DNA from: Candidatus Heimdallarchaeota archaeon
GTDB taxonomy: Archaea; Asgardarchaeota; Heimdallarchaeia; Heimdallarchaeales; Kariarchaeaceae
DNA length: 32,000 nucleotides
Assembly: GCA_030149205.1 (NCBI GenBank)
Contig: JASBSB010000006.1
Span: 150,001 to 182,000 of the forward strand
Direction: 5' to 3'
A model generated the notes under the pieces. The model ran no database searches and was not told the origin of the DNA. It was given only the letters and a program-made list of their open reading frames with translations. A program made the position numbers and the translations under genes. This document shows positions 5,584-30,225 of this stretch, piece by piece; within the stretch, counting starts at the first letter, position 1, and every line of letters starts with the position of its first letter.

Positions 5584-6120
5584 ATGTCTCGCAAGAGTAA
5601 GGTTCCTTTCACTTTCAAAATCCTACTTCTGGGTGACCCAGCAGTTGGAAAAACCTCCTTGATTAGAAGATTCATTCATGGAAAATTTACTAAAGATTAT
5701 CTTGTCACACTTGGGATGGAACCTTATTCCAGATATGAGACCATTGATGGCACAACAGTTGCTTTGAATCTTTGGGATATCGCAGGTCAGCAAAAATATG
5801 AGAGCTTCCGATCGGTTTTTCTCAAAGGGGCACAGGGAGCGATAGTGGTTGGAGATGTCACTCGAAGATCTACTTTTGTTAGTGTTGATCAATGGGTAAA
5901 TGATGCGAGAAAATTATCACCTAACATGACAGTCCTTCTTGTTGGGAATAAGAGTGATTTAAAGGACAACCGAGCATTTTTTAGACGTGAAGGAAACCAA
6001 AAAGCCCGTGAGACTGAAAATTGTTTGGGTTATATCGAAACCTCAGCGTTAACAGGCCACAGGGTGGTAGAGGCATTTCACACAATTGCTTCACATATAT
6101 TGGAACAACAGAGAAGTTAG
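5584..6120 (+). CDS. Rab-like small GTPase (Ras superfamily)
   Basis: G1 GDPAVGKT, G2 YLVTLG, G3 WDIAGQ, G4 NKSD, G5 ETSA. No C-terminal Cys prenylation motif. Confidence 0.93.
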   Translation: MSRKSKVPFTFKILLLGDPAVGKTSLIRRFIHGKFTKDYLVTLGMEPYSRYETIDGTTVALNLWDIAGQQKYESFRSVFLKGAQGAIVVGDVTRRSTFVSVDQWVNDARKLSPNMTVLLVGNKSDLKDNRAFFRREGNQKARETENCLGYIETSALTGHRVVEAFHTIASHILEQQRS

Positions 6121-6176: not shown

Positions 6177-6575
6177 GTGTTTGATTTAGAGAAATTGCAA
6201 CAAGAGTTCAATCAGACAGCGAAAAATTTGTTTATCAATGAAGAAGAGAAAAGGGATAACATATCCAAGGATAAGATTATTAACCTTTATGAAAGATGTA
6301 GACAGCAGAAAAAACTGATCAAAACCGCATATTGGGCTTTAAATGACCAAAATTTATATGTAAAGCTCGCTGCATTGGATCTCATCCAAACCTACCCTAG
6401 TGAAGAATCAAAGGAATATCTATTTAAAGCCCTAGAAGATGAGGAAAACATAAACATTAGACAGAAAATTGTAGAATCAATAAACAAAATTGAATCAGAG
6501 ATAAAAAAGATGTATACTAAAGAAGATGGAAAAATAACTATATCTGGAGCAGTAAAATATCTTAATTATTCGTAA
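6177..6575 (+). CDS. Small HEAT-repeat (PBS lyase-like) protein
   Basis: [17 protein letters not shown] and [21 protein letters not shown] repeats. In-frame GTG at 6177 with an AT-rich TATA-like element near 6143-6152; the track start at 6021 overlaps the GTPase. Confidence 0.65.
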
Positions 6576-13500: not shown

Positions 13501-13513
13501 TCAGAAATTCTGA
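13501..13513. promoter_or_regulatory. 13-bp palindrome TCAGAAATTCTGA, copy 1 (upstream of korB)
   Basis: TCAGAA-A-TTCTGA about 95 bp upstream of the korB start, in a 271-bp intergenic region. Identical copy at 22221-22233. Confidence 0.45.
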
Positions 13514-15898: not shown

Positions 15899-16330
15899 TT
15901 ATACCTGTTGATAGTTCATACCTTGACGGGAAGCTATTTTGTTTTTGATTGATTCATAGGTAAGCTTAGATTTATCATCCTCATGAATTTGTGTTGATAA
16001 TCCTACAAAGCTGGACGTTACGGTTTTTTTAGTACCTGCATAACTCATTCGGAGTCTTACTGATGATTCTAAGGGCATCCAGAATAAAAATAACATACGA
16101 GTGTCGTCCAAGCCAACCCTATTTTTCATAGGAAAATCATAGAGAACATATCGGGGCTCATTATCAGGGAGCTCATTCACAACCTCTTCAAAGGATTGTT
16201 CTGTCCTTTTATCAAGGACAATGTGTTCATCCTCAATTTTCAGGATCATCCCCTGTGCTTTTTTCTCAAATCTCATTTTTTCATAATCTTCGATTATGGT
16301 ACTGTTCACTTCAATTCCAGTGGTACTCAT
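15899..16330 (-). CDS. ADF/cofilin family actin-depolymerizing factor (single ADF-H domain)
   Basis: 143 aa. MSTTGIEV N-terminus, LPDNEPRYVLYDF, FLFWMP..SSVRLRMSYAGTK and GLSTQIHEDD.S.LTYESI match the cofilin pattern end to end. Confidence 0.85.
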   Translation of the reverse strand: MSTTGIEVNSTIIEDYEKMRFEKKAQGMILKIEDEHIVLDKRTEQSFEEVVNELPDNEPRYVLYDFPMKNRVGLDDTRMLFLFWMPLESSVRLRMSYAGTKKTVTSSFVGLSTQIHEDDKSKLTYESIKNKIASRQGMNYQQV

Positions 16331-16392: not shown

Positions 16393-17064
16393 TTAAGATT
16401 GTTCAGGATTTTGAAAACTTGGTAGGAAGGAATAATTTTTTCTCGGTTTAAATGATCCTGAAATTGAGATATTTCTTTGAATAAAAGCCTCTGCTGCAGT
16501 TGTTCCAGCCTGGATACCCCGGAGATGAGTTCTGGCAGAATGGAAGCGAGAATAGAAATTATCTCCACCTTTGTGTGATTGTGATTCATAGATTTTTATC
16601 GCCTTGTCTCTGAGTGAAACAGTGTCACTGATATCAACCAATACTTCAGGTATATCGATTAATACAGTGGTTTCGGCTGACCAAACATTTGATACCTGAT
16701 GAGCCTCTCCTTGTGTGGTGTGACTCGCCCATTCTACAGCTTCTAACACTATTTCTTGAGTGATGCGATGTTCTTTGTGATAATCGTTCGGGATATGTGT
16801 AATCACATGCTGTGGTTTGTGTTTTACAATTAATTCACTCAATTGATTTTGAATCTTTCTGCTATTTTCCCAGGTTATATTCTTTTCATTTAAGGTGATC
16901 GGCAAAGTGTTTAGTATTGAACAAGCTTCCTTGAATTCATCTTCTCTTTTAGGATCTGCTGTTATACTAACAGAAACACTTTTAGAGTATTTAGCCAGAG
17001 TTCCTCCACAGGAAAATGTTTCATCATCCTGGTGGGAAAATATACTCATAATTTTATCTTGCAT
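16393..17064 (-). CDS. bshB: PIG-L family deacetylase, candidate GlcNAc-malate deacetylase BshB
   Basis: SHQDDE..SCGGTL metal motif (variant of HPDDE), DYHKEH, AI..YESQ, AEAF. The bshB assignment rests on co-location with bshA and bshC. Confidence 0.7.
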   Translation of the reverse strand: MQDKIMSIFSHQDDETFSCGGTLAKYSKSVSVSITADPKREDEFKEACSILNTLPITLNEKNITWENSRKIQNQLSELIVKHKPQHVITHIPNDYHKEHRITQEIVLEAVEWASHTTQGEAHQVSNVWSAETTVLIDIPEVLVDISDTVSLRDKAIKIYESQSHKGGDNFYSRFHSARTHLRGIQAGTTAAEAFIQRNISISGSFKPRKNYSFLPSFQNPEQS

Positions 17065-17077
17065 TTATAATCCTCAT

Positions 17078-17353
17078 GAGGTGAGAAGGTAATCCAGATT
17101 TTGTTTGATCCGCACGACAATCCTGCCTTGATCACGCAACATTCATCTTTGCTTGCTACCCGATTCCTCAGAAGGTGATTCATCGGAATCTGCTTGCAAT
17201 TGCACCACGGTGATGATCCGTTTCAGCATCCAATGGAAGTATCGTTTCTGCTATCAGAGCCAGGTTCTCACCTGAAAGGTTTACACCTTTACCGTTCACC
17301 TTCTGGTGTCTGGACTTTCCTCAGTTTCCCGCAGGTTGCGTTCTTCTCTCCTC
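17078..17353 (-). ncRNA. rnpB: RNase P RNA, compact archaeal type A
   Basis: Minus strand reads GAGGAAAGUCCAG (CR-I), GCAGAAAC (CR-II), UGAAACGG (CR-III), AACAAAAUCUGGAUUA (CR-V). Pairings: P1 GAGGAGAGAAG/CUUCUCACCUC, P2 CGCAAC/GUUGCG, P4 AGUCCAG/CUGGAUU, P5 CACC/GGUG, P6 AGAAGGUG/CACCUUCU, P8 AAAGGU-GUAA-ACCUUU, P9 CAGGU-GAGA-ACCUG, P19 UGAUC/GAUCA; L15 GGU present. Confidence 0.95.
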
Positions 17354-17375
17354 AAATTTCAAGTAAATTACTCTC

Positions 17376-17389
17376 TAATATAATCTTTG
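17376..17389 (-). promoter_or_regulatory. Probable BRE/TATA promoter of rnpB
   Basis: Minus strand CAAAGA-TTATATTA ends 22 nt upstream of the P1 5' end, typical archaeal spacing. Confidence 0.5.
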
Positions 17390-17395
17390 TGTTTA

Positions 17396-18469
17396 TCAAC
17401 TCATTCGGGAAATAATCTTAAATGTTTCATCGTCTACCTTATCATAAGTCACCAAAATATTCCGCTTTAACAGAGTTGTAATGACAAATATTGAATCTAT
17501 AGAGAGCAAAGCTGGGTTTCCTTCTAATCTAAGTGATTTCAGTGGTAGACATGCATCCATGGGAGGTATTGATTCAAGTTGATTATTTTGTAATGATAAA
17601 GTGTCCAAAGGAAGATTGATAAGTTGATACGGAAGTGACTTTAATTTGTTTCTTGATAAATAGCAATACCTTAAGCTTTGACAGCCACCAATGGTCTCTG
17701 GGAGATGAGTTATCTGATTATCTTGAAGCCATAATGATTCTAATCCCAACAGATTACCAATCGATTCAGGTACCTGAATCAGTTCATTATTGTGTCCAAA
17801 AAGTTGCCAGAGATTTCTCATTAACCCCACCTTTGGAGGTAAAAATTTTAGTTGATTGTATTGAACCGAGAGCTTGGTGACCTTATATAACAAATCTAAA
17901 TTTTCTGGGAGAGACCTCAATCTGTTGTTATTCAAAGTTAAAACCTGCAACTCTTTAAGTTTGGTTACATCCTCTGGAATAGCTCTCAAATGATTATGGG
18001 ATAGGTCTAGTTTTTTTAGTTTACTCAGGTTTGAAATGTGTTCAGGAATCTCGGTGATATGATTATTTGAGAGATGGAGGTACTCAAGATTCTTTAACTC
18101 AAATAATGCTTCAGGAATCTCAGTCAATTGATTGTTTGATAGGTTTAAAGTTCGTAGATTTTTTAATTCTGAGATATTCTCAGATAAGGATAAAAGGTTA
18201 TTATTTGACACAAAAAGATCTTTAAGATCTTGAAGCGCATATATTTTCTCTGGTAGACGCTTCAGGTGGTTAAAGGACAACTGTAAGCCCTGTAGACCCT
18301 GAAATTCAAATATGATGTTAGGAAGGTATCCTAACCCTAAATCTGTTAAACGTAAATAGGTGAGAACATTACCTCTGTCAAATTCAGTTCTGGGATAATC
18401 ACTTACCAATCCTCTTAGGTCACTTGAAATTTGTTTTTCAAGTCTAAGTAAATTGGCAAGGTCATCCAT
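17396..18469 (-). CDS. Leucine-rich repeat protein, about 13 repeats of 23 aa
   Basis: Consensus LxxLxLxxNxLxxLPxxIxxLxx repeated through most of the protein. No catalytic or Roc domain visible. Confidence 0.92.
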   Translation of the reverse strand: MDDLANLLRLEKQISSDLRGLVSDYPRTEFDRGNVLTYLRLTDLGLGYLPNIIFEFQGLQGLQLSFNHLKRLPEKIYALQDLKDLFVSNNNLLSLSENISELKNLRTLNLSNNQLTEIPEALFELKNLEYLHLSNNHITEIPEHISNLSKLKKLDLSHNHLRAIPEDVTKLKELQVLTLNNNRLRSLPENLDLLYKVTKLSVQYNQLKFLPPKVGLMRNLWQLFGHNNELIQVPESIGNLLGLESLWLQDNQITHLPETIGGCQSLRYCYLSRNKLKSLPYQLINLPLDTLSLQNNQLESIPPMDACLPLKSLRLEGNPALLSIDSIFVITTLLKRNILVTYDKVDDETFKIISRMS

Positions 18470-18527
18470 TCTACAAGTAATTAACGTATCTTTTGATATT
18501 AAAAGCTATTCACACTTCTCAAATGGG

Positions 18528-20450
18528 TTATGAAAAACTCTCTTGATTGATGACAATATTTTTTCTATTGTTCCACTCTCTCTTTGGCATTGAAAAGAGT
18601 GGTTCTATACCATCAATTACCATATTTTTCATAAATTTAACCATACGAGTTCTGGTTAATAACTCACCATCTATATGTCGAATAATTCCATTAGGTCTCC
18701 AACCAGTATACGTAAACAGCAATTGTTCAAGTTGCCCAGTATAGTTTATTTCTACAATAATAGATTTTTTGATTTTATTCAATTCAGTTTTAACTTTCTC
18801 AACAGGTAGTGGAAACATATTAGTGAAAATTAAACCATTCCACTTTAATTCAGTCTGTTCATTTAACAGTTCAACAGTTTCTTCAACCGCTGTACCAATA
18901 GAACCCCACCCTATTAATGTTATATCTGCATCGTCACCATTGACCCACTCTGGTGGATCCATATCCTCAGTAGCTAATTTTTCTAATTTTCGAAACCTTT
19001 TGTCAAACATTTGGACTTTTAGTTTTCTTGCCTTGGAAAGACCTGCAGAATGTCCTGCAAGTGAGAAAGAATCTACATCATGTTCAGCACCAACAGCCAC
19101 ATGGATCCCATCAGGATGAGGAGCGAATAGCCTGGGTGATATTCCATCTTCAGTTAGAGCATATCTGTGATATTCTGGCTCTTCTTCAGTTGGACCTTCC
19201 CAAACCTTTCCTCTATCAATTTTCACATCAAAGTTAAATGGTTCTACATTTTGAATCCCTTCAGCCAGACCAAAATCTGAGAGAATAAAAACAGGAATTT
19301 GATACTTTTCTGCAATGTTGAATGCCTTTATAGTCAGATGATAGGCATCTGTAATATCTTTTGGTGAGAAAACGGCTCTCGGGAATTCTCCATGTGAAAG
19401 ATTAATCACTGAATGTAAATCTCCCTGTTCGGTCTTGGTAGGCATTCCAGTTGATGGACCTCCTCTTTGAGCATCAACAATTACAACAGGAGTTTCAGTT
19501 ATTCCTGCCAGGCCTACATTTTCAGCCATCAATGATATTCCAGGCCCTGATGTTGCTGTCATGGCCCTTACTCCCGTCCATGATGCACCTATAATCATTG
19601 CGATGGCAGCTAACTCATCTTCAGCTTGTCTTACTACGATTCCGAATTTTGAAGCGTTTTGAGAGAGGTATGTCAAAATACTTGAGGCTGGTGTGATTGG
19701 ATACTGAGCAACAAATTTGAGTCCTGCTGCTGCTGCTCCAAGCGCCACAGCATGATTCCCATTAATCACGATCCCATTTGACTTTTTAAGTTTGCCTTCA
19801 GTTAAAATTAATTCGAAGTCTAGACTATCTCTTGAGAATTCAAACCCTTTTTGTAATGCTTCAACATTCATGTCAAAAAGATCTTTTCGGGGAAATCTTT
19901 TTCTTAATACTTCATGGTACGGTTCAAGTGGAAGACTAAGAATTTCCAATATCGCACCAATAGCAACTGTATTTCCTAATACAGGTTTTTTAAGATCAAT
20001 CTCACGAGCAATCGTTGTGAGAGGAATCCCTAGAAGCACCAGATTTTTCTGTTCTATAACATCCATAAATTCCGTCAGATCGACCTTTCGAGTGTTATTG
20101 TAGATCAAAACACCATTAGGTTTAATCTCGTTTAAGTGGATCCCCACAGAGTTTGCATCAAGGGCAACTATCATATCGACAACGTTATCTGCTGTTGCAA
20201 AGTTTTCGCTGGATATCTCAATATGGTACCAAATATGACCTCCCCTAATAGCTGATTGATTCCCAGGGTAGCCATGTACACTATAACCCAACGTATTGAA
20301 ATATTTTGTAATCAATAAACCTGTAGACTGAAGACCATCACCAGCAGCACCACCCCATTTCATGGCGAATCGTTTCAGTGGTTTGCCTGATTCAATAGGT
20401 TTCTGTGTGTCTACGTCTTTTAACACTTCTTCCAGTGAAATTGAACTCAT
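18528..20450 (-). CDS. korA: 2-oxoacid:ferredoxin oxidoreductase alpha subunit (gamma-alpha fusion)
   Basis: GGAAGDGLQSTG, IRGGH, QYPITPAS, QAEDE, TATSGPG, QRGGPSTGMPTKTEQGD. GAGGT SD-like sequence upstream. Confidence 0.95.
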   Translation of the reverse strand: MSSISLEEVLKDVDTQKPIESGKPLKRFAMKWGGAAGDGLQSTGLLITKYFNTLGYSVHGYPGNQSAIRGGHIWYHIEISSENFATADNVVDMIVALDANSVGIHLNEIKPNGVLIYNNTRKVDLTEFMDVIEQKNLVLLGIPLTTIAREIDLKKPVLGNTVAIGAILEILSLPLEPYHEVLRKRFPRKDLFDMNVEALQKGFEFSRDSLDFELILTEGKLKKSNGIVINGNHAVALGAAAAGLKFVAQYPITPASSILTYLSQNASKFGIVVRQAEDELAAIAMIIGASWTGVRAMTATSGPGISLMAENVGLAGITETPVVIVDAQRGGPSTGMPTKTEQGDLHSVINLSHGEFPRAVFSPKDITDAYHLTIKAFNIAEKYQIPVFILSDFGLAEGIQNVEPFNFDVKIDRGKVWEGPTEEEPEYHRYALTEDGISPRLFAPHPDGIHVAVGAEHDVDSFSLAGHSAGLSKARKLKVQMFDKRFRKLEKLATEDMDPPEWVNGDDADITLIGWGSIGTAVEETVELLNEQTELKWNGLIFTNMFPLPVEKVKTELNKIKKSIIVEINYTGQLEQLLFTYTGWRPNGIIRHIDGELLTRTRMVKFMKNMVIDGIEPLFSMPKREWNNRKNIVINQESFS

Positions 20451-20534
20451 TAATTAACCTCAACCAACTACCAAGATATTACTTTAAATACAGAACTATA
20501 ATGAACCCAATTTTTGACCTATAATCATTCAATA

Positions 20535-22166
20535 TTAAACTTGAGTGTTCAAGTAGTTGAACCCATGAGGGCTAGAAACAGGGTTATAACTTCTAATGTA
20601 AGTAGGAATATAATCTGCAAGTCCAGTCAATAAAGCTAGGTCGATCCATATCCATGATACCTCTTGTCCAAATTTCTCTTTGGTAAACCTCCCAAATTGC
20701 CAAGAAAGATATTTACTAGGGTCAGATTTATGCTGAACCTTTAACAGAGAAAGAAAGGTCGAATGTATAAATTCTCTGAGTTGTATCTCAACCTTCCTCA
20801 AGCCAGCTAGATCCTCTGACTTTTGACATGTAACCTGGTCTCTTAAGATTTTAAACAGGAACTGATTTTGCAGACTCGGGATATTCCTTTTTTCTAATTC
20901 TTTCCCTAGTTTCTCAATCCAATTTGAATTGTAAAAGGCTCTTTTATACCTGAAATAAATAGGAGTTTTTATTGGAATCGCATTAATAGCATTTGAAACC
21001 TGAGCATAGTATGCAATTTCACCAGGTCCTGAAATTCTTATCTTTATATTCAGGATGTTTTGAACTATTGCTTGTGAAGATTCAACCCTTGGCCCCAAAT
21101 CTTTGATAATCGATTTCAAATCTTCCTCAGTTTTAACTAGGAACTCATAATCTTTTTTGCAAACCGAACATTGACCATAAAGTAGAAATCCGTCCTGATG
21201 CTTAGATTTTGAAATATTAACACGGTATCCCGAGCAGGGACATTCATAAGAGAAAGGTAAGTAAGATTCATCTCGTTGGGGGAGAGAGGGCTTATATCCC
21301 AATTTGATGAGCTCTTCGGTTTGCTTGTTGAATATTTTGTGAAAGTCATCTGAACAAAGAATTTTAAAGTACTGAGATGTCAGTAACTCTCTTAGATCTG
21401 GGTGGGATGTCGGAAGGAATACAATCCCAAGATCATTTATTTTATTAGATATAGTTCCCCAAATTTTGACGAAGAAATCTGGAAAGGTCTTTGAGTTAGA
21501 ATGTGCAAATCTGATTAATGTTTTAATGTGGGCAAGTCGCTCATCCAATAGTTTTTTCTTGTCAACTGGTTTTACAGAACTTTTAAACCCGTTTATCGAT
21601 TGATCGATCTGAAGAAAGACATTTTCTAGCCATTTTTCATCAGGAATTTCAACTCTATGGATAACAGTATCTTCCTGTACCTCTAATGAATCATTTGCAT
21701 CTAGAATTACCGCATTAGGTGAGATCGGGTTTGGAAAATAAGTTCTATAGAGCTCTTTTTGATACCCATCATAATCACCAACCATAAATATTGGTGCTAT
21801 CTTTTTTCCTTCAACATCTACAACTTCTGATATGGCTGAAAGAATTGATATTTTGTTTGCAATAAAACCAGGACCTCCCAAAATCACCGGTTGTTGACCA
21901 GCCATCACTGAACCAAAATTCAATCGTTGGATATTATCTTCAACTTTTTGAGAATAAATTGAGTGCTCAATATGGAAATTTCTTAACAATACCTTTAATT
22001 TGTCAAGATCGTCTGCATCAGTTTCGTTGTTTTCAAAAGAAATCTGATCAGATAGCTTGTTAATCTCTGATCCAATATTCCCCCAAAATGGATTGATTAA
22101 CTCTCTCTTTTCCAAAAATAAATCATACAGGGTATTTGGATTAAGAAGATCAGAATCCTTGTTCAC
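20535..22166 (-). CDS. bshC: Bacillithiol biosynthesis cysteine-adding enzyme BshC-like protein
   Basis: AGQQPVILGGP...NK (BshC TGQQ..GGP.Y...K), PIFMVGDYD (PVFW.AGEDHD), GPGEIAYYAQ (GPGE.AYW.Q). 543 aa, typical BshC length; GTG start. Confidence 0.8.
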   Translation of the reverse strand: MNKDSDLLNPNTLYDLFLEKRELINPFWGNIGSEINKLSDQISFENNETDADDLDKLKVLLRNFHIEHSIYSQKVEDNIQRLNFGSVMAGQQPVILGGPGFIANKISILSAISEVVDVEGKKIAPIFMVGDYDGYQKELYRTYFPNPISPNAVILDANDSLEVQEDTVIHRVEIPDEKWLENVFLQIDQSINGFKSSVKPVDKKKLLDERLAHIKTLIRFAHSNSKTFPDFFVKIWGTISNKINDLGIVFLPTSHPDLRELLTSQYFKILCSDDFHKIFNKQTEELIKLGYKPSLPQRDESYLPFSYECPCSGYRVNISKSKHQDGFLLYGQCSVCKKDYEFLVKTEEDLKSIIKDLGPRVESSQAIVQNILNIKIRISGPGEIAYYAQVSNAINAIPIKTPIYFRYKRAFYNSNWIEKLGKELEKRNIPSLQNQFLFKILRDQVTCQKSEDLAGLRKVEIQLREFIHSTFLSLLKVQHKSDPSKYLSWQFGRFTKEKFGQEVSWIWIDLALLTGLADYIPTYIRSYNPVSSPHGFNYLNTQV

Positions 22167-22220
22167 AAAACATAAATTTTTGATATCTTTTAATGTTCTT
22201 TCGAAGGGATAAGTTTCACC

Positions 22221-22233
22221 TCAGAAATTCTGA
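22221..22233. promoter_or_regulatory. 13-bp palindrome TCAGAAATTCTGA, copy 2 (bshC/trxB divergent intergenic region)
   Basis: Identical to 13501-13513; about 55 bp from the bshC start and 67 bp from the trxB-like start. Confidence 0.45.
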
Positions 22234-22299
22234 TTGAAAATTTACAATTTGGGAGGATTATCTAAAAATCTTATAAGGAAGAAGGGTTAATATCCATTA

Positions 22300-23211
22300 A
22301 TGTTTAACATGCCAAACGGTGAACTAATTCACACTGATGTTGTTGTAATAGGCGCTGGAATTGCGGGAATAAACGTAGCAAAAATCATTAAGGAGTTCAC
22401 AGAAAAAGAGGTTTGGCTATTAGGGAGCCCATATGAGTCGCAGGTGGCAAAGGCTGGATACATCGTGGATTCAGATGATGTCAGCTCTCAAAAAGTTGGA
22501 CAACAATTAATAAAAGAAATGTTTGAAGAGACAAAAGGTTTGGGAATTAAAACTAAAACCAGCTTAGTGACTGAAATAGAGCCTCAGGGTGAGAAAGTAC
22601 TTTCAAAAACTAAATTTCAAGACTTTATCTCAGATTATATCATAATTGCAACAGGAGCAAAACAGATGAACAGCTTAATTCCAGGATTTGATGACCTGCT
22701 ACACCAAGGTGTTTCTGATTGTGCTGTTTGTGATGCGAACTTGTATAAAAACAAAAAAGTTGCCTTATTTGGTAATCATGAGTACTCTCTCCAAAGTTTG
22801 AAGTTTTTGCTAAATGTTGTACCTGATGTATATTTATTATGGGAAGGGGAGAATCTATCGACAACAGAACTTCCTCTTGATAAATCCAAAATTTATTTGG
22901 GTGTAAAGAATTTACGAATTTTTGGGAATGAGGTAGTAGAAGAGGTAAAGTTTGAATCTAACAAAGAGCAGCATTCGTTAAAAATCAATGGACTCTTTGT
23001 TGAATCCAAGCCACGGTCAAACTCCACGATCTTTCAGAATTTACTTGAAGTAACAGAAAATGGAGAAATTGTTACTGATCAATATTTTAGAACCTCTGCA
23101 AAGAACATTTATGCAATAGGGGACGTGACTTCAAAAGAAAAATCTGTGGCAAGTGTATTTAATCAGCTAAAGAGTTTTAAAAATCTTGTAAAATCCAAGA
23201 CTATCTTATAA
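22300..23211 (+). CDS. trxB: Thioredoxin reductase-like flavoprotein with degenerate NAD(P)H-binding motif
   Basis: FAD motif VVVIGAGIAG, IIATGA, redox CAVCD, RTSAKNIYAIGD. The GGGxxA position reads FGNHEYS. Confidence 0.7.
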   Translation: MFNMPNGELIHTDVVVIGAGIAGINVAKIIKEFTEKEVWLLGSPYESQVAKAGYIVDSDDVSSQKVGQQLIKEMFEETKGLGIKTKTSLVTEIEPQGEKVLSKTKFQDFISDYIIIATGAKQMNSLIPGFDDLLHQGVSDCAVCDANLYKNKKVALFGNHEYSLQSLKFLLNVVPDVYLLWEGENLSTTELPLDKSKIYLGVKNLRIFGNEVVEEVKFESNKEQHSLKINGLFVESKPRSNSTIFQNLLEVTENGEIVTDQYFRTSAKNIYAIGDVTSKEKSVASVFNQLKSFKNLVKSKTIL

Positions 23212-23255
23212 TTCCTTGTCCAAAAGCGTTAAAACTTGATAAGATACTGTATCCT

Positions 23256-24851
23256 GTGCAAATAAAATTCGGGATCATTGAAACTACAATCTTTCAAAAG
23301 CGGTTAGAGAGCATTGCTGAGGAAATGAGTAGGGTATTGAGGAGAGCCTCATACTCACCAAACATCAAAGAGAGAGCAGACTTTTCATGTGCGATATTCG
23401 ACAGTGAGGGGAGATTAATGGCTCAGGCTGAGGCAATACCTGTACATCTGGGATCAATGGGGTTTGTTGCAAAGCCAGTTATAAATAAATTTCAAGGAAA
23501 ATGGAGTGAGGGGGACGCAATAATCGTAAATTCACCTCGTTCTGAATTTGGTGGAACCCACCTTCCCGATATTACCTTGTTATCACCGATTTTTGTTGAA
23601 GAAAAACTGGCTTATGTGGTTGCAAATCGTGCTCATCATGCAGATGTTGGGGGTATGGCACCAGGTTCGCTTCCTGCAGATTCAGTTGAAGTGTTCCAAG
23701 AGGGTCTAATAATTCCACCAATAAGATTATTCAAAAAAGGAAGGGTAAACTTAGATGTTCTTGAATTGATTTTAGAAAACGTCAGAACCCCAGATGAAAG
23801 AAAAGGAGACCTAAACGCACAGTATGCAAGCCTATCCCTTGGTACAAGAAGGTTAAAATCAGTTTTGGGAACAAGTTCATTTTCAGAAATAGTTCAAATT
23901 AACACAAATATTTTAGATTATTCAGAATCGGCAACGAAAAAGATTCTTAAGACTTTACCAAAAGGTTCAGGGACATTTGAAGATACTTTAGATAACGATG
24001 GTTTTAGTCAATCGCCTGTGAAAATTAGATGTTATGCTAATTTGACAGATCAAGGTGAATTACTCTTTGATTTTACAGGAAGTGATTCTGAACAACTGAG
24101 TAATTGTAATGCACCGCTTTCAATCACAACCTCATGTGCTTATTATGCCACTAGACTGTTAACAGGGCCATCAGTTCCAACAAATGAAGGTTGTTTCCGC
24201 TCAGTTAAGGTTATTGCTCCGGAAAATAGTATCCTAAACCCCTCTAAAAATGCAGCAACTTCAAGCGCTAACACAGAGACCAGCCAAAGAATTGTTGATG
24301 TAATCCTTGGAGCACTCAGTCAATGGATCCCTTTAATTCCAGCTGCATCACAGGGAACCATGAATAACGTTATCCTAGGTGGGATTTACAAAGAAGAAAA
24401 TTGGACAATTTATGAAACTCTAGGAGGAGGAGCTGGGGCAAATTTTGAAAATGAGGGGACATCCGCAATACAGTGTCATATGACCAATACTGAGAATACA
24501 CCAATAGAAGCTCTAGAAACACAGTACCCCTTAATAATAAGAGAGTACAGGATTAGAGAGGGCTCTGGGGGATTAGGTGAAAAGGTTGGTGGAGATGGGT
24601 TAATTAGAACATATGAGTTTGTGGATAAAACTACTGTTTCGTTACAGACTGAGAGAAGAGTGTCTAACCCTTATGGCATAAAGGGAGGGAAACCTGGGGA
24701 AAAAGGTGAAAACATTCTCCTACAAAAGGGTAAAAAAGGTGAAAAATTAAGGGGTAAAACATCCTGCCGGATGGAAAGTGGTGATATGCTAATTATTAAA
24801 ACCCCAGGTGGTGGAGGATACGGATCCCTTACAAAACAACCTCTCCTTTGA
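23256..24851 (+). CDS. Hydantoinase B/5-oxoprolinase family subunit
   Basis: AEEM..VLRRASYSPNIKERADFSCA, PVHLGSM, GGTHLPD, RAHHADVGG, GTMNN, YETLGGG, HMTNTENTPIE, TPGGGGYG. Confidence 0.93.
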   Translation: MQIKFGIIETTIFQKRLESIAEEMSRVLRRASYSPNIKERADFSCAIFDSEGRLMAQAEAIPVHLGSMGFVAKPVINKFQGKWSEGDAIIVNSPRSEFGGTHLPDITLLSPIFVEEKLAYVVANRAHHADVGGMAPGSLPADSVEVFQEGLIIPPIRLFKKGRVNLDVLELILENVRTPDERKGDLNAQYASLSLGTRRLKSVLGTSSFSEIVQINTNILDYSESATKKILKTLPKGSGTFEDTLDNDGFSQSPVKIRCYANLTDQGELLFDFTGSDSEQLSNCNAPLSITTSCAYYATRLLTGPSVPTNEGCFRSVKVIAPENSILNPSKNAATSSANTETSQRIVDVILGALSQWIPLIPAASQGTMNNVILGGIYKEENWTIYETLGGGAGANFENEGTSAIQCHMTNTENTPIEALETQYPLIIREYRIREGSGGLGEKVGGDGLIRTYEFVDKTTVSLQTERRVSNPYGIKGGKPGEKGENILLQKGKKGEKLRGKTSCRMESGDMLIIKTPGGGGYGSLTKQPLL

Positions 24852-24969
24852 GTTTCTACATGAAAATGAAAATAAATATATATACTGCAAAATATCTATG
24901 AGTATAGGTTGGTTTAGAATTCTTCACAGAAATTCAAATAGGCCAGTTCAAGGAGATTTCAATGCTCAT

Positions 24970-26226
24970 ATGAACAGCAATGGTTCTAATGTAAAAACAG
25001 TAATAGTTGCGGCAGTCCCAGAAATTAACCGAAACATCTCTTCCCTCTTTGCTAAATTTAAATTTGACATCATCGGTTCTACAACCTCTCTTGATGAGGC
25101 ACACACCATATTGCGAAAATCTCAACCAGAAGGGATAGTATACTTTCTTGATGTTGATATCAATGAGGTTCTTACTGCCTTCCAAATCTTTGATGAATTA
25201 CCCCAGACCCCAATTCTCCTCTTAGGGCAATTAGATGCCCTTATTAAGGTTAAATTGAAAAAACTAAAAAACCCAACCATGCATTCTGATTACCCACTTA
25301 GGAATCCATTCTCTGTTTTAAATAGATTTAAGTCATTAATCCTGGGTGATACAGATAATTCTGATATCTTTGCTCTTGAATTTATCAACCATATTCTCAA
25401 TGAGATTTACTTATTAACACCAAGAACATACAAAAAAACGGTGAAGGCTTTAATTACCCAAGTATTTCAGAATGTCGAGAAAAGGAACTCAAACTTTGTG
25501 TTTGATCAAAACACACTAACAATTTTTTATTCAATTGACGTTACTGAAATTAAAACTCAACAAATGATCTTACTAGTTTCGAGCTTTGCACTGAACGAAT
25601 TTATCCAATTGTTAGATAAAAATATCGATGAGCATTGGAGTCATTCACTGGTTCAGGATGCGATTCTCCAAGTTCTTATAAAATTTGGAAACAAAAATCA
25701 AAAATTGCTTCAGGTTTTCATTGATCAATTTGACGACTTAGCTGAATATAAATCAACCCTAAACCTCCCAACTGGGTCAAAGGATGAACAATTAGATGTA
25801 CATGTTGGACTAATTACTCTTGAGAATGATGGACCAGTCCTCAAGAAGTTCATTGGCTCTGGATCATTATTTGACCCTGTTAATGTTGCCCAGCTTGTGT
25901 TATTGGTTGGTCAAGGAGAATCTTATCGTGAAGGAATATATGGACCTGTTCCGTTTAATACCCCTGTAGGAGATTATGTCACAATAATTGCTAGTAAAAA
26001 AATGAAATCAGATACCCTAACGGATGAAAGGATGGGTGGGACAACACTCGCATTATGTGTTGGTATATTCCATAGATCTTTAGTTAAGACTATTAAAGTT
26101 AGAAAGGTATTCAAAACCATATTCTACCCCTTCCTTGAGAAGTTATCTGTAAATGATATTGATGAAAATATACTATCAAGGATTAATCAGGGGATATTGA
26201 ATTATCTTCAGGATAATACTAGTTAA
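24970..26226 (+). CDS. Hypothetical protein: pseudo-receiver-like N-terminus and longin/uDENN-like C-terminal domain
   Basis: Long clean ORF. N-terminal beta/alpha pattern resembles a receiver domain without the acidic pocket; C-terminus has ITLENDGP..GQG..Y..GIYGPVP..DER. Start uncertain (ATG 24898 or 24970). Confidence 0.55.
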   Translation: MNSNGSNVKTVIVAAVPEINRNISSLFAKFKFDIIGSTTSLDEAHTILRKSQPEGIVYFLDVDINEVLTAFQIFDELPQTPILLLGQLDALIKVKLKKLKNPTMHSDYPLRNPFSVLNRFKSLILGDTDNSDIFALEFINHILNEIYLLTPRTYKKTVKALITQVFQNVEKRNSNFVFDQNTLTIFYSIDVTEIKTQQMILLVSSFALNEFIQLLDKNIDEHWSHSLVQDAILQVLIKFGNKNQKLLQVFIDQFDDLAEYKSTLNLPTGSKDEQLDVHVGLITLENDGPVLKKFIGSGSLFDPVNVAQLVLLVGQGESYREGIYGPVPFNTPVGDYVTIIASKKMKSDTLTDERMGGTTLALCVGIFHRSLVKTIKVRKVFKTIFYPFLEKLSVNDIDENILSRINQGILNYLQDNTS

Positions 26227-26279
26227 AATTAAATTAGAGCTTAGTCACAGTTTATTAACAAACCACTAAAATTTCCCTT

Positions 26280-28262
26280 ATGTGGAAAATTGTTGGAGTT
26301 GATGTTGGAGGTACATTCACTGATGTGATAGCCATTGATCAAAGCTCTAGGGTTCGTGTGTTTAAAATCCCATCCACACCAGAAAATCCAATAGATGCAG
26401 TAACTAGTGCAATTGATACATTAGATGGTGACATAATTGAACTTTATCATGGAACCACAGTAGCTACTAATCATGTTCTTCAACAAAATGATGCCAACCT
26501 CGTTTTCATTACTACTCAAGGCTTTAAAGATGTAATTGAAATTGGTAGACAGAACAGACTGAATATCTATGACATTATCCCAACCCGATCAAAATCTCTG
26601 GTAAGAAGAGACCATAGAGTTGAAGTTGAAGAAAGAGTGTTAGCAACTGGGAAAATAGAAAAAGAAGTCACCGTTGAGGAATTAGATAATCTTAAAGAAA
26701 AAATCAAATTCCTGATGGATCATGATAAAATTAATGGAATTGCCATTGGATTTCTCTTTAGTTTTCTAAACCCTAGAAATGAAATATTGGTTGAGTCATC
26801 TCTTCAGTCCTTAGGGGTACCAATATCAAGATCATCAGCTATTGTTCCAGAATATCGTGAGTATGAACGCTTCAGCACAACAATCTTAGACGTATATCTT
26901 AAACCTGTACTTGAAACATATACCTTAAATTTAAGAAAGTCAATTCTCGACTCTGGAATAGTAAAAAATCTAGCAATAATGAAGTCTAGTGGCGGGTTAA
27001 CATCAACAAAATCAGTATTAAAAAAACCAGTAGAGTTGTTGATTTCTGGTTTAGCAGGTGGGATGCTAGCAGCAAAACATACATCAGAATTGACTCATAC
27101 TCCAAATATTCTAAGCTTGGATATTGGAGGAACTAGCACAGATTTAGGTCAGATTAAAAACTTCAATTACCAGATGAAAGATGAAATCAAAATTGCAAAC
27201 ACCCCGGCTTTTATTCCTGTTGTTGATGTTATTACTATAGGAGCTGGAGGAGGGTCTATTGTTGAATTAGACGGAGGGTTCCTAAAAGTCGGACCAGAAA
27301 GTGCTGGAGCAAACCCTGGTCCAATTTCGTACAATTTAGGTGGGGATAAACTTACCATTTCTGACATAAATTTAGCTTATGGAATTTTAGCTGAGAACCT
27401 TGGAGGAGGGATTGTACAATTAAATAAACCGTTAGCATTAAAAGCAATCGAAAATATGGCTAATAATTTAAAAACGGATGTAAATTCGTTTGTGGTGGGT
27501 GTTCGAAAAATTTTTCATGAAAACATTGTTGCTTCCTTAAGGCAGATTTCCACTGAGAGAGGAGAAAATCCCAATGAATTTTCTTTGTTAGGATTTGGTG
27601 GGGCTGGTCCATTACATACTGCAGAATTGGCAGATATTTTAGGAATATCAAATGTATTGATACCTCCATTTCCGGGAATTTGGTCTGCATATGGGCTATT
27701 GTTCGGAAATTATAGGTATGACATCAAAAAGACAAATTTCGAAATTCTTGATCATGTTAATGACAAAACTCTTGAAAAGAATTTTTCAGAATTGAAACAA
27801 GAATTAATTTATCAAATTGAAGACGACAGGATACAAATGGACAACGTAAAGTTTAGCGAGGTAATAGATGTAAGATTTAAAGGGCAATCTTACCATTTAC
27901 CAATTGAATGGAAACAAGACAAAACTCTACTAAAAGAAGATTTTTTTGAGGAGCATAGGAAGTTATATGGGTTTGTTGACAGAGCAGAAATCGTTGAAAT
28001 TGTCGCATTAAAGATGAGTGCTGTTATTGAATCTGAGAATGTTAAACTACCTAACATCAAACAAAAAACTTGGAATGAGAGTCCGGGAATGAGAAAAGTC
28101 ATTGGGATTGGAAATGTTGAAATCCATGATAAGGAAGAATTTTCAATAAACTCCTTGTATCAGGGTCCATTAATAATCGAACAAGAGGACACAACAATTT
28201 GGGTTCCACCTAAATGGAAGTTTCGAGTTGATAAACTTGGGTTTGTACGCCTCACAAAGTAA
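26280..28262 (+). CDS. Hydantoinase A/5-oxoprolinase ATP-binding subunit
   Basis: GVDVGGTFTD, HGTTVATN, EYERFSTT, DIGGTSTD, IGAGGGS, GPESAGANPGP, FGGAGPLH, GPLIIEQEDTTIWV. Confidence 0.93.
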   Translation: MWKIVGVDVGGTFTDVIAIDQSSRVRVFKIPSTPENPIDAVTSAIDTLDGDIIELYHGTTVATNHVLQQNDANLVFITTQGFKDVIEIGRQNRLNIYDIIPTRSKSLVRRDHRVEVEERVLATGKIEKEVTVEELDNLKEKIKFLMDHDKINGIAIGFLFSFLNPRNEILVESSLQSLGVPISRSSAIVPEYREYERFSTTILDVYLKPVLETYTLNLRKSILDSGIVKNLAIMKSSGGLTSTKSVLKKPVELLISGLAGGMLAAKHTSELTHTPNILSLDIGGTSTDLGQIKNFNYQMKDEIKIANTPAFIPVVDVITIGAGGGSIVELDGGFLKVGPESAGANPGPISYNLGGDKLTISDINLAYGILAENLGGGIVQLNKPLALKAIENMANNLKTDVNSFVVGVRKIFHENIVASLRQISTERGENPNEFSLLGFGGAGPLHTAELADILGISNVLIPPFPGIWSAYGLLFGNYRYDIKKTNFEILDHVNDKTLEKNFSELKQELIYQIEDDRIQMDNVKFSEVIDVRFKGQSYHLPIEWKQDKTLLKEDFFEEHRKLYGFVDRAEIVEIVALKMSAVIESENVKLPNIKQKTWNESPGMRKVIGIGNVEIHDKEEFSINSLYQGPLIIEQEDTTIWVPPKWKFRVDKLGFVRLTK

Positions 28263-28471
28263 TAAAACGCATATTTAATCAGATTCTTTAAAAAAGGTTA
28301 AGCTCAAATAGTTAAACAAACAGATTGTTTTATTTTTGACCTTGTTTATAGTATTCACTTCCTATAATACTAAAATTAAAAGGACCATAATTCCAATCAT
28401 TAAGCCAGACGTAATTAAATTGTCAAAATCAATGGTAAGATATACATAGCTATTCTTGATCTTCTTTCCTG

Positions 28472-29572
28472 CTATTGTAATAAAGTTTCATAGATACTCT
28501 CGTATTCAGCAATTATTTTTTCTTTGTTAAATTTCTCTATTACAAATTTCCTACCAAACTCACCAAATCTGTTCCTTAAACTTTCATCACCCATTAATTT
28601 TTCTAATGAGTTTATGGCTGATTCTACAGAATTTACCTCAAATAGGTAACCAGCAGAACCATGTACACACACCTCAGGGATGCCACCCACGTTTGTAGCC
28701 CAAACGGGGGTACCTGATGACAATCCTTCAGCAATTGTCAATCCAAATGATTCAATCTGACTCGGAGCAGCTAAAATGGAGGAAGTTGAAAACTCTATTG
28801 GGATATCTTTTGTTGGAGGCTGAAACATTATTTTATCTAAAAACCCCCCCTCTTTTGCAATCCGATGACAAATCGGTCTCTCAGGCCCGTCACCTATTAA
28901 TTTAAGTTTCCAATTAGGGTAATTTTCTTGCACTTCACCAAAGATTTTCACTAAAAATGGAATTCTTTTGACCGGTCGGTAATTACTGGCTGCCACGATA
29001 ACTTTTTGTTTAGGTTGATCCTTTGGAGAAAATAACTCGGTGTCTATAAAATTATAAACTGTTAACGGTGTTTTTTCAAGAGAAAATGTCTCAGTTGCAA
29101 GATTAGACAAATAATTTGAAACTGTTGTTACTTGATTTGAATTATTCAAGGCTTCTCCAACTATTTCCTTTATCGAGTCTTTGTTACCAAGTGTATGAAC
29201 ATCTGAACCATGAAGCGTGACAACAGATTTTGACTTAGTTCCTTTTGTTGCTAAGTATGAAGAAACTGCATTTGGGATGCCATAATGAGTGTGAATTAAA
29301 TCTAAGCTATGTTCCTTTATAGCTTTTCTTATTGTATTTGCTAACGGAATTGTATAAAGTGCGCCGATCTCTTGAAATAATGGATACTTCTCCATTTCAA
29401 CATTGTGAAAAAATAAATTTGGATTTCCTTGAACTTTTTCATCAAGAAATAAAGGCTTTTTGTAGGAGATAATGTGAACTTCATGCCCTTTTTGGGACAG
29501 TTCAACTGCAAGATTACTTGCAACCATCCCACTACCACCCAATGTGGGAAAGCCAACAATCCCAATCTTCAC
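28472..29572 (-). CDS. bshA: N-acetyl-alpha-D-glucosaminyl L-malate synthase BshA (GT4)
   Basis: MKIGIVGFPTLGGSGMVASNLA, YPLFQ, HTHYGIPNA, TLHGSDV, SNYRPVKR, GDGPER, ESFGL..AEG, TNVGGIPEV. These follow the BshA-specific pattern rather than generic GT4. GTG start. Confidence 0.85.
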   Translation of the reverse strand: MKIGIVGFPTLGGSGMVASNLAVELSQKGHEVHIISYKKPLFLDEKVQGNPNLFFHNVEMEKYPLFQEIGALYTIPLANTIRKAIKEHSLDLIHTHYGIPNAVSSYLATKGTKSKSVVTLHGSDVHTLGNKDSIKEIVGEALNNSNQVTTVSNYLSNLATETFSLEKTPLTVYNFIDTELFSPKDQPKQKVIVAASNYRPVKRIPFLVKIFGEVQENYPNWKLKLIGDGPERPICHRIAKEGGFLDKIMFQPPTKDIPIEFSTSSILAAPSQIESFGLTIAEGLSSGTPVWATNVGGIPEVCVHGSAGYLFEVNSVESAINSLEKLMGDESLRNRFGEFGRKFVIEKFNKEKIIAEYESIYETLLQ

Positions 29573-29691: not shown

Positions 29692-30225
29692 TTGAACAGA
29701 CTAAAGATTGTTCATTACAATCAATGCGATAGAAAAAAATGTTCTGGTACAAGATTAATAAATTTAGGGGTGGCAAAGCAGGTTTCGATTAAACAGATCA
29801 AAAGAGAAGTTGTACTATCACCCTTCGCTGAAAGAGTGATATCTGCTGAAGACAAAGAAACATTTAACAAATTTGGCTTAGTGGGAATGGATTTGAGTTG
29901 GAATAAAATTGCTTCAGACCTCAACAAATACAAATCAATTTTCAATAAGGGAACACCTAGAGCATTACCATTTTTGGTTGCCGCAAATACAGTTAATTTC
30001 GGAAAACCTACAAAACTAAACACTTTGGAAGCGATAGGGAGCGCACTTTGGATTCTTGGAGAAATGGAAGGTGCTGAGAAGGTATTTCAATCTGAAAAAT
30101 ATGGAAAAAACTTCATTGAATTGAACTACGAGAGACTGGAGAGATATGCTAAGGCAAAAAATGCTCAAGAAGTTATTCAAACCCAGGCTGATCTCATGAA
30201 AGAGCTTTACTCAGATTTAGCCTGA
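29692..30225 (+). CDS. tsr3: SSU rRNA aminocarboxypropyltransferase Tsr3
   Basis: QCDRKKCSG, LSP, DLSW, RALPFLVAAN.VNFGKPTKLNTLEA. Confidence 0.92.
   Translation: MNRLKIVHYNQCDRKKCSGTRLINLGVAKQVSIKQIKREVVLSPFAERVISAEDKETFNKFGLVGMDLSWNKIASDLNKYKSIFNKGTPRALPFLVAANTVNFGKPTKLNTLEAIGSALWILGEMEGAEKVFQSEKYGKNFIELNYERLERYAKAKNAQEVIQTQADLMKELYSDLA

Follow-up and report, generated by a model that had tools for sequence, protein, structure and literature searches.

The 32,000-nt stretch of DNA analysed here (hereafter the window; G000:C2:150001-182000) belongs to a Candidatus Heimdallarchaeota genome of 3.3 Mb, which is 93.5% complete and has a G+C content of ~36%. It encodes a glycosyltransferase, a deacetylase and a putative cysteine-adding enzyme that probably represent the three enzymes, BshA, BshB and BshC, of an archaeal bacillithiol pathway, with a predicted product that is bacillithiol proper (Cys-GlcN-malate, i.e. 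cysteine and malate joined to glucosamine, GlcN) or a near-identical compound. If close Cys-GlcN derivatives are counted together with bacillithiol, a function of the gene set in the synthesis and recycling of such a thiol appears highly likely. These readings are based on family and fold membership, conserved catalytic residues, a conserved gene neighbourhood and phyletic co-occurrence. The gene set is a divergent archaeal variant of the known pathway, in which BshC and BshB fall into separate archaeal subfamilies. An original prediction made from the DNA letters had proposed an apparently complete bacillithiol-type pathway at this place, with a disulfide-reductase-like gene divergent from bshC. 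The four open reading frames (ORFs) were indeed found at the positions claimed, with the reductase-like gene divergent from bshC across a 133-bp spacer, and the set is retained as a functional one; to call it complete in the canonical sense was an overstatement, though, because BshB and BshC fail the equivalog cut-offs.

The mechanism that we propose follows the steps of the bacterial pathway. That is, BshA would move N-acetylglucosamine (GlcNAc) from UDP-GlcNAc onto L-malate, the PIG-L zinc deacetylase would then strip the acetyl group to give GlcN-malate, and the BshC-fold enzyme would join cysteine to the free amine, yielding bacillithiol or a very close derivative that would serve as a cytoplasmic low-molecular-weight thiol. 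The oxidised disulfide would be recycled by an NADPH-dependent Bdr/YpdA orthologue, and a flavoprotein of the thioredoxin reductase (TrxR) fold, which has a CxxC motif and is devoid of an NADPH site, may pass electrons from another donor into the thiol system. Malate as the acceptor of BshA, GlcNAc-malate as the substrate of the deacetylase and cysteine addition as the chemistry of BshC are predictions, as is the role of the flavoprotein.

The glycosyltransferase, a member of glycosyltransferase family 4 (GT4), is a bona fide BshA, and this is the sole assignment that is secure by sequence alone. The protein scored 327.4 bits against the BshA equivalog model TIGR03999 (cut-off 273.7), with a match covering residues 1-365 of 366, and it was likewise over the cut-off when the genome was searched (325.3 bits), whereas the MshA model gave 68 bits (cut-off 462) and the remaining GT4 models were far under their cut-offs. 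The top five matches in the PDB were all BshA structures (2jjm, 3mbo, 5d00, 6n1x and 6d9t; 212-232 bits, full length), and the top matches come from Bacillus anthracis, B. subtilis and Staphylococcus aureus with ~40% identity. At the 87 alignment columns that are ≥97% conserved among 67 bacterial BshAs, the window protein carries the identical residue in 66. The functional residues of S. aureus BshA, H118, T120, N171, K209, E280, S281 and E288 (PMC10361700), have as their equivalents H121, S123, N174, K202, E274, S275 and E282. The GlcNAc-contacting ESFG motif is intact in BshAs of the Heimdall clade; the same position (alignment columns 389-393) reads EGMP in Thor-like BshAs (loci L045-L050) and ESAP in those of Bathyarchaeia (L078-L105). 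In a related GT4 enzyme, the Neisseria meningitidis W polymerase, Pro versus Gly at an ESFG-type position switches the Gal/Glc donor preference and, by analogy, Thor-like and Bathyarchaeia BshAs may use a different UDP-sugar donor. It should be noted that the public bshA gene call (P0036, 351 aa) begins 15 codons downstream of the GTG at position 29572 (window positions 29528-29572) and lacks the conserved N-terminal GGSG loop, which in the alignment falls at residue 1 of crystallised BshAs. The start of the 351-aa call is probably mis-called, and the longer GTG start is the better one.

Phylogenetic trees of BshA were built with FastTree (165 rows) and with IQ-TREE (LG+C20+F+G4 PMSF; 55 rows). 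In both trees the window protein branches with its genus, then its family and then its order, inside a Heimdall clade (96-97 in the Shimodaira-Hasegawa-like approximate likelihood ratio test, SH-aLRT). That clade is sister to the clade of all sampled bacterial BshAs (SH-aLRT 99) and is the archaeal clade closest to them; Thor-like and Bathyarchaeia BshAs form one clade each. The sole outgroup was very long (a branch of 3-6 substitutions per site), and the direction of inter-domain transfer was not inferred. The congruence of the trees with the lineages supports a long residence in Heimdallarchaeia, and the analysis shows a gene set that is old, vertically kept in Heimdallarchaeia and common to Bathyarchaeia. 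Long residence had been predicted from the interleaving of the genes with housekeeping genes; this argument does not hold, since the genes are clustered in relatives, but the trees lead to the same conclusion.

The 543-aa protein matched BshC models only, i.e. PF10079 with 60.8 bits (cut-off 27) and TIGR03998 with 65 bits, and it is the one PF10079 protein encoded in the genome. Its PDB match by sequence was 4WBD (E 2.6e-6). An AlphaFold2 model computed with 26 homologues reached a mean predicted local distance difference test score (pLDDT) of 92.9 and a predicted template modelling score (pTM) of 0.93. When this model was compared with the PDB using Foldseek, the first match was again 4WBD, the BshC of B. 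subtilis (E 7.9e-22, TM 0.68, 16% identity, full length with 588 aligned columns), followed in rank by class I lysyl-, glutamyl- and methionyl-tRNA synthetases. Alignment of the archaeal and canonical BshC profiles with hhalign gave a probability of 98.7% over 347 columns, and the two share the motifs GQQP..GGP..K, P.F...D..E, GYKP and GP(G/S)EI.Y. The predicted BshC-like ligase thus has the BshC fold and profile, though its score is under the equivalog cut-off. When the archaeal BshC profile was run against 1.84 billion cluster representatives, 1708 matches were obtained at E ≤ 1e-3, 56 of them at E ≤ 1e-30; full-length scores ranged from 825 down to 226 bits and the next were ≤107, a gap which indicates that archaeal BshC is a discrete subfamily.

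One feature of this subfamily is a cluster of cysteines located in a beta-hairpin subdomain (residues ~300-345). All 26 homologues have C309 and C333, and >90% of them have C336; C311 of the window protein is not conserved, and many homologues have an Asp three residues after C309. The beta-hairpin subdomain is also present in B. subtilis BshC, but the cysteines are absent there. Since a zinc-ribbon protein was among the weak structural matches to residues ~300-345 (rank 49), we looked on a metal site at the cluster as plausible. MshC and cysteinyl-tRNA synthetase (CysRS) bind cysteine by an active-site zinc, and the archaeal cluster is possibly analogous. One may go further and propose, as an idea that we regard as unlikely, that archaeal BshC would be mechanistically distinct, with Cys309, Cys333 and Cys336 (plus a Cys or Asp) forming a zinc site that holds the substrate cysteine as in CysRS and MshC; that in Kariarchaeaceae-type Heimdallarchaeia it would be paired with the adjacent NADPH-independent flavoprotein, linked to ferredoxin or another donor; and that the product would be an archaeal-specific Cys-GlcN thiol common to Asgard archaea and Bathyarchaeia. 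Even for the bacterial BshC, no in vitro reconstitution of the cysteine-adding reaction has been achieved (PMC5790435). If the proposal is true, a distinct archaeal branch could reveal the cysteine donor and the chemistry of BshC.

The 223-aa protein is a member of the PIG-L family (PF02585, 60.8 bits), and its best PDB matches were BshB1 (6p2t) and BC1534 (2ixd). Across 36 orthologues there is no substitution at H11, D13, D14 or H99, which represent the HxDD motif and the final His of HxxH and which align to the motifs of 6p2t and 2ixd. Furthermore, nine diverse PIG-Ls of the window type matched only BshB1, BshB2, MshB or Mca models, with 55-95 bits. The genome encodes five PIG-L paralogues, of which the window copy is the weakest on the Pfam PIG-L model, and therefore its assignment as BshB needed independent support. 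This was given by synteny: orthologues of the window copy, and not those of the other four paralogues, adjoin bshA in 10 of 17 and in 32 of 43 loci of two sets, which share 8 contigs. The PIG-L in the window is thus predicted to be BshB on the basis of synteny, and the original prediction had picked the right paralogue. A paralogue with a better hidden Markov model (HMM) score, L006 (98.9 bits on BshB1), was considered as BshB and rejected, because only window-type orthologues sit in the clusters; an L006-type PIG-L was seen beside bshA in L051 only.

Co-occurrence was assessed in 301 Asgard genomes, a sample evenly drawn across the phylum in which kin are not independent. BshA was detected at E ≤ 1e-60 in 140 genomes (134 over cut-off) and PF10079 at E ≤ 1e-3 in 156 (142 over cut-off). 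Both were found in 132 genomes, PF10079 only in 24, BshA only in 8 and neither in 137; in five of the eight BshA-only genomes bshA lies ≤1.5 kb from a contig end. That is, a PF10079 gene is present in 132 of the 140 BshA-positive genomes, and clustering or co-occurrence with bshA is the very property by which BshC was first identified. By family, BshA and PF10079 were found in 10/10 and 9/10 genomes for f1, 28/29 and 28/29 for f2, 10/11 and 10/11 for f6, 69/76 and 69/76 for f11, and 16/19 and 17/19 for f17; no BshA was detected in the 21 sampled genomes of f5 or in the 68 sampled genomes of f14. In nearly every positive genome bshA and bshC are neighbours. As a separate observation, a BshA-less genome of the Heimdall class (f5) encodes a 558-aa BshC-family protein (L107:7287-8963, minus strand; PF10079, 40 bits), whose gene converges with one for a class I/II aminotransferase and has neither a glycosyltransferase nor a PIG-L gene within 4 kb; the same kind of aminotransferase adjoins bshC in a Thor-like cluster (L045:11951-13225, minus strand).

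We compared 19 neighbourhoods by tblastn with the window proteins. A compact PIG-L/bshA/bshC unit occurs in the family of the window (L033-L035), in its sister family (L042) and in two more Asgard families (L045-L050), and the PIG-L of this unit, an orthologue of that in the window, is 52-59% identical to it in members of the family and 33-41% in the other lineages. In addition, the BshC alignment was used to scan the species genomes of GTDB, which yielded 43 loci, 8 of them on the same contigs as in the 19-neighbourhood set, from metagenome-assembled genomes (MAGs) labelled Heimdall, Kari, Thor or 'Promethearchaeota' and from ~22 Bathyarchaeia MAGs. The three-gene unit was found in 32 of the 43 loci, most of the exceptions being cut by contig ends. 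The genes on two short contigs labelled as bacterial (Desulfaltia and Krumholzibacteriaceae) nest inside the Bathyarchaeia clade, and these contigs are probably misbinned. The predicted co-occurrence of the three genes in relatives is therefore seen as a compact cluster in Asgard and Bathyarchaeia loci alike, and the three window genes are one conserved functional unit of bacillithiol type. Two further genes were noticed in Bathyarchaeia. In one subclade (8 loci: L080-L082, L089-L092 and L095) a Thioredoxin_9 protein with a WCGDC motif, a candidate for an archaeal 'bacilliredoxin', is encoded between bshC and bshA, and in 13 loci an Amidohydro_2 gene lies in or beside the cluster, mostly between PIG-L and bshC.

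In the window itself the unit is dispersed, bshA being 6.3 kb from bshC and PIG-L 11.4 kb from bshA, so that the set spans 13 kb. The ancestral order in the family was roughly hydantoinase A/B, a 472-aa gene, the TrxR-like gene (reverse), bshC, bshA (reverse) and PIG-L, as in L035/L067. In the genus of the window (L037 and L038) PIG-L is located beside cofilin several kb off and the hydantoinase genes lie between bshC and bshA; relative to L037 and L038, the window shows an inversion of the block from the OFOR-alpha gene to a 593-aa gene. The 13-kb spread is a derived state that goes back to a recent, genus-level rearrangement.

Recycling of the thiol disulfide is predicted to involve a gene outside the window. 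An orthologue of Bdr/YpdA is encoded 160 kb off on the same contig (G000:C2:342363-343331; L052:1429-2484, minus strand). It passed TIGR04018 (355 bits; cut-off 339.9), and its best PDB matches were 7a76 and 7a7b (225 and 200 bits), the Bdr enzymes of B. cereus and S. aureus, with ~45% identity. In the 301-genome sample YpdA was found in nine genomes, all BshA-positive: 7 of the 11 genomes of the window's family and two of the sister family, with 4 of 4 genomes of the genus positive (the window's own genome being included in both counts).

The TrxR-like gene beside bshC is of another kind. The protein scored 150 bits against TIGR01292 (cut-off 343.45), its best PDB match was TrxB-3 of Sulfolobus solfataricus (3f8p, 88 bits), and the FAD motifs and the CxxC are kept. 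Among 10 orthologues the motif SDC(A/S)(V/I)CD is invariant, and in all 10 the second GxGxxA site is degenerate (G-N-H-E-Y-S/T; FGNHEYS in the window). In all the neighbourhoods compared from the window's family, and in no other family, the gene lies next to bshC and diverges from it. A canonical TrxR (394.8 bits) is encoded elsewhere in the genome, the TrxR-like protein being the third with this fold. The possibility that the divergent gene was Bdr was considered and rejected, since Bdr/YpdA is a separate gene elsewhere, as is the canonical TrxR. The disulfide-reductase-like gene of the original prediction is thus TrxR-like and divergent from bshC, as described, but it is not the known bacillithiol disulfide reductase, as it has no NAD(P)H motif and Bdr is found elsewhere. 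We tentatively regard it as an accessory reductase.

A number of observations weigh against bacillithiol as the product. The BshC-like protein is far under the TIGR03998 cut-off (65 versus 265.8 bits), and the best NCBIfam matches of PIG-L are BshB2 with 62.3 bits (TIGR04000, cut-off 195.25) and BshB1 with 57.3 bits (TIGR04001, cut-off 182.5). Searches with models specific for the three enzymes, which the original prediction had suggested as a check, were thus passed by BshA but not by BshC and BshB. In BshA, the position of S. aureus Thr120 is occupied by Ser in every archaeal sequence, which is a conservative change, whereas a bacterial-invariant Glu (column 88) and a bacterial-invariant Arg (column 112) of the N-terminal domain are replaced in the window protein by Asn20 and Phe42, respectively. 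As these two residues lie in the acceptor domain, the acceptor might be different from malate. The Bdr orthologue has the motif GAGPVG instead of the GGGPCG of Firmicutes, with Val at the position of Cys14; Cys14 is reported not to be conserved in distant Bdr homologues (PMC8113031), and the wider family is therefore not defined by it. Searches of the genome, which is 93.5% complete, for the bacilliredoxins BrxA/B (PF06491) and BrxC/YtxJ (TIGR04019) found nothing at E ≤ 0.001. Finally, there is no archaeon in which bacillithiol has been detected (PMC7278568).

The replacement of the Glu and Arg residues by Asn20 and Phe42 is the main reason for which we keep, as a minority view that deserves attention, the alternative that the pathway has the same logic but a different product. 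This product would be Cys-GlcN on a non-malate acceptor or a modified (e.g. N-methylated) bacillithiol, in either case an archaeal-specific thiol. Besides the archaeal-lineage substitutions at bacterial-invariant positions of the acceptor domain, the separation of archaeal BshB and BshC into discrete subfamilies (with BshC scores of 825-226 and then ≤107 bits), the presence in archaeal BshC of a Cys cluster that B. subtilis BshC lacks, and the occurrence of modified bacillithiols in Chlorobi (PMC12719100) would all be in line with this alternative. Yet BshA passes an equivalog model trained on malate-using enzymes, the Heimdall clade is the archaeal clade nearest to bacterial BshA, the Bdr orthologue is ~45% identical to enzymes that reduce bacillithiol disulfide, and none of the loci examined has a methyltransferase gene linked to the cluster. 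These points argue for bacillithiol or a near-identical compound as the more probable product.

Two other explanations would dispense with a thiol altogether. Under one of them, GT4 and PIG-L would build a GlcN glycoconjugate, such as a glycosylphosphatidylinositol (GPI)-like GlcN-lipid or a surface glycan, and the BshC-fold protein would have an unrelated role. A GT4 enzyme followed by PIG-L is the logic of the first two steps of GPI anchor synthesis (PIG-A and PIG-L in eukaryotes), and this shared logic, together with a PIG-L that is under every BshB cut-off, would suit such a pathway, as would the fact that the chemistry of BshC has never been demonstrated (PMC5790435). We consider it very unlikely nonetheless, for GT4 is specifically BshA (327 bits, versus 68 on MshA), the BshC-fold gene is tied to bshA in two archaeal phyla, both by synteny and by its phyletic pattern, a Bdr orthologue co-occurs, and a CxxC thioredoxin-like gene is inserted in 8 Bathyarchaeia clusters; inspection by eye, with no transmembrane prediction made, revealed no obvious hydrophobic membrane segment in the three proteins. 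Under the other explanation the genes are decaying remnants, dispersal reflecting lost selection, and no product is made. The cluster is indeed broken up here and compact in relatives, and conserved positions are substituted more often in the window BshA than on average in its clade, but every ORF is intact and full length, the catalytic residues are retained, two other species of the genus (L037 and L038) show the same dispersal and likewise have intact genes, and Bdr is retained as well. We consider decay very unlikely.

The features of the window are listed in Table 1. The Asgard-like archaeal context that had been predicted is evident from the Asgard hallmark genes of the window, which also include Spt5 and TYW3 genes, and the nearest named relatives of the window proteins are from 'Candidatus Heimdallarchaeota' and 'Kariarchaeaceae/Kariarchaeota' MAGs.

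Table 1. Features of the window; coordinates are positions within the 32,000-nt stretch
Feature	Position	Strand	Length	Remarks
Ras-family GTPase	5584-6120			Asgard hallmark gene
Cofilin/ADF	15899-16330			Asgard hallmark gene
bshB-like PIG-L/LmbE zinc deacetylase	16393-17064	-	223 aa	Predicted GlcNAc-malate deacetylase
Leucine-rich repeat (LRR) protein	17396-18469			Asgard hallmark gene
Archaeal-type bshC	20535-22166	-	543 aa	BshC/UPF0747 fold with conserved Cys cluster; predicted cysteine-adding enzyme
bshC/TrxR-like divergent intergenic region	22167-22299		133 bp	Holds the palindrome TCAGAAATTCTGA
TrxR-fold flavoprotein	22300-23211	+	303 aa	CxxC present, NAD(P)H dinucleotide motif absent; candidate for an accessory reductase
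Hydantoinase/oxoprolinase B	23256-24851	+		Hydantoinase_B (Pfam); between bshC/TrxR-like and bshA
472-aa protein	24808-26226	+	472 aa	No Pfam or NCBIfam match; between the two hydantoinase/oxoprolinase genes
Hydantoinase/oxoprolinase A	26280-28262	+		Hydantoinase_A (Pfam); between bshC/TrxR-like and bshA
bshA	28472-29572	-	366 aa	Retaining GT4 glycosyltransferase; predicted UDP-GlcNAc:L-malate GlcNAc-transferase
tsr3 (DUF367)	29692-30225	+		rRNA aminocarboxypropyltransferase; NF002621, 169 bits

Several neighbouring genes accompany the unit. In families f1, f2 and f4 the gene tsr3 adjoins one of bshA and bshC; it is a conserved synteny marker beside bshA, outside the pathway. The hydantoinase genes and the 472-aa gene flank the TrxR-like/bshC pair in six loci (L034, L035, L037, L038, L072 and L077). 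The Hydantoinase_B and Hydantoinase_A proteins are oxoprolinase/caprolactamase-like, under every NCBIfam cut-off, and their genes are syntenic with those for the thiol throughout the family; orthologues of the 472-aa protein (25-29% identity) keep their place beside the bshC-linked TrxR-like gene in at least 8 loci (L033-L035, L067, L069, L070, L076 and L077). The fused eukaryotic homologue of hydantoinase A/B, 5-oxoprolinase, is part of the glutathione cycle; to our knowledge there is no known link between hydantoinase/oxoprolinase and bacillithiol. The hydantoinase A/B and 472-aa genes share the synteny of the cluster and are at most candidates for membership of the pathway.

The 13-bp palindrome TCAGAAATTCTGA has two exact copies in the window (13501-13513 and 22221-22233), compared with 0.21 expected, and five copies genome-wide; a reversed control had none. 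Its sites include the bshC/TrxR-like divergent spacer and a position upstream of the OFOR beta gene (korB). As a common operator of the thiol genes it was rejected, since it is absent at bshA, at the PIG-L gene and at Bdr, and a regulon is unsupported. Elsewhere in the window, another gene of thiol-redox type (6562-8631, minus strand) encodes a 689-aa DUF255/thioredoxin-domain protein (YyaL/SPATA20-like) with a glycoside-hydrolase-like six-hairpin tail; in relatives it has no linkage to the cluster. A methyltransferase at positions 92-757 had zero matches in a PDB search.

The basic claim, that Asgard archaea have bacillithiol genes, is not new. In their review 'Redox and Thiols in Archaea' of 2020, Rawat and Maupin-Furlow count 39 InterPro hits in archaea for BshA and as many for BshC, mostly from Asgard archaea, but only two for YpdA (PMC7278568), a 2021 preprint on Asgard viruses describes BshA as 'prevalent in Asgards', and many of the homologues are already named BshA or BshC at NCBI and JGI, as the original prediction had suspected. 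By contrast, a 2025 RefSeq survey by BLAST found the complete pathway in no archaeon (PMC12719100), which is explained by the divergence of archaeal BshB and BshC. Our literature search found no description of the conserved archaeal three-gene cluster, of its occurrence in Bathyarchaeia, of the Kariarchaeaceae-type Bdr or of the linked flavoprotein. New are the assignment of BshB by synteny, the extension to Bathyarchaeia, Bdr and the linked flavoprotein. A database hint has thus become a defined gene set, in which it is specified which PIG-L paralogue, which type of BshC and which reductases belong together. Eukaryotes use glutathione, and the gene set is a lead on Asgard redox biology. Moreover, a divergent and plausibly metal-binding BshC branch with a fixed flavoprotein neighbour would provide a second, independent system for the unsolved BshC reaction.

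Compared with known systems, the window set has the same three families and the same step logic as the bacterial BshA-BshB-BshC pathway of B. subtilis, B. anthracis, S. aureus and Deinococcus radiodurans and its N-methyl variant in Chlorobiota, and here, as in bacteria, bshC follows bshA in its occurrence and is at times clustered with it. The window BshC departs from its bacterial counterparts in that its identity to the B. subtilis enzyme is ~16%, it scores under TIGR03998 and a site of three or four cysteines in the beta-hairpin subdomain is conserved; BshB fails TIGR04000 and TIGR04001 and belongs to an archaeal subfamily of its own, and no bacilliredoxins were found in the genome. The Thor-labelled PIG-L/bshA/bshC cluster has the same BshC and BshB subfamilies, with orthologues that are 26-38% identical and the same inferred function. 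It differs in that the window set is dispersed, that BshA of the Heimdall clade keeps ESFG where Thor-like BshAs have EGMP, and that the window's family adds the bshC-linked TrxR-like gene without NADPH motif and Bdr/YpdA. Another cluster of the Heimdall class, bshC-bshB1-bshA in family f6 (L011-L019, L043 and L044), is over all bacterial cut-offs (BshC 386, BshB1 236 and BshA 405-424 bits), and its BshA, unlike that of the window, branches with the bacterial clade. This suggests a separate acquisition of bacterial type within the same archaeal class. Since the f6 proteins pass the cut-offs, they serve as an internal control, indicating that the window BshC and BshB are truly different and of an archaeal type.

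The mycothiol pathway of Actinobacteria (MshA-MshB-MshC) runs through a parallel chemistry with a GT4, a PIG-L deacetylase and a cysteine ligase of class I aminoacyl-tRNA synthetase-like fold. Unlike in mycothiol synthesis, the MshB model gave 26 bits for the window protein (cut-off 224), the MshA and Mca models were also far under cut-off, the ligase has the BshC fold and is not a homologue of MshC/CysRS, and there is no MshD; an analogy to the zinc of MshC and CysRS may exist in the archaeal BshC Cys cluster. As for the flavoprotein, it resembles two TrxR-fold enzymes that are independent of NAD(P)H, the ferredoxin-dependent FFTR (6gna-6gnd) and the deeply rooted DDOR/DTR (5j60), both of which are among its PDB matches, in combining the TrxR fold, an FAD motif and a CxxC with the lack of GxGxxA. 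Its scores of ~55 bits to the FFTR and DDOR structures are no closer than those to ordinary TrxRs, and its position beside bshC has no described counterpart.

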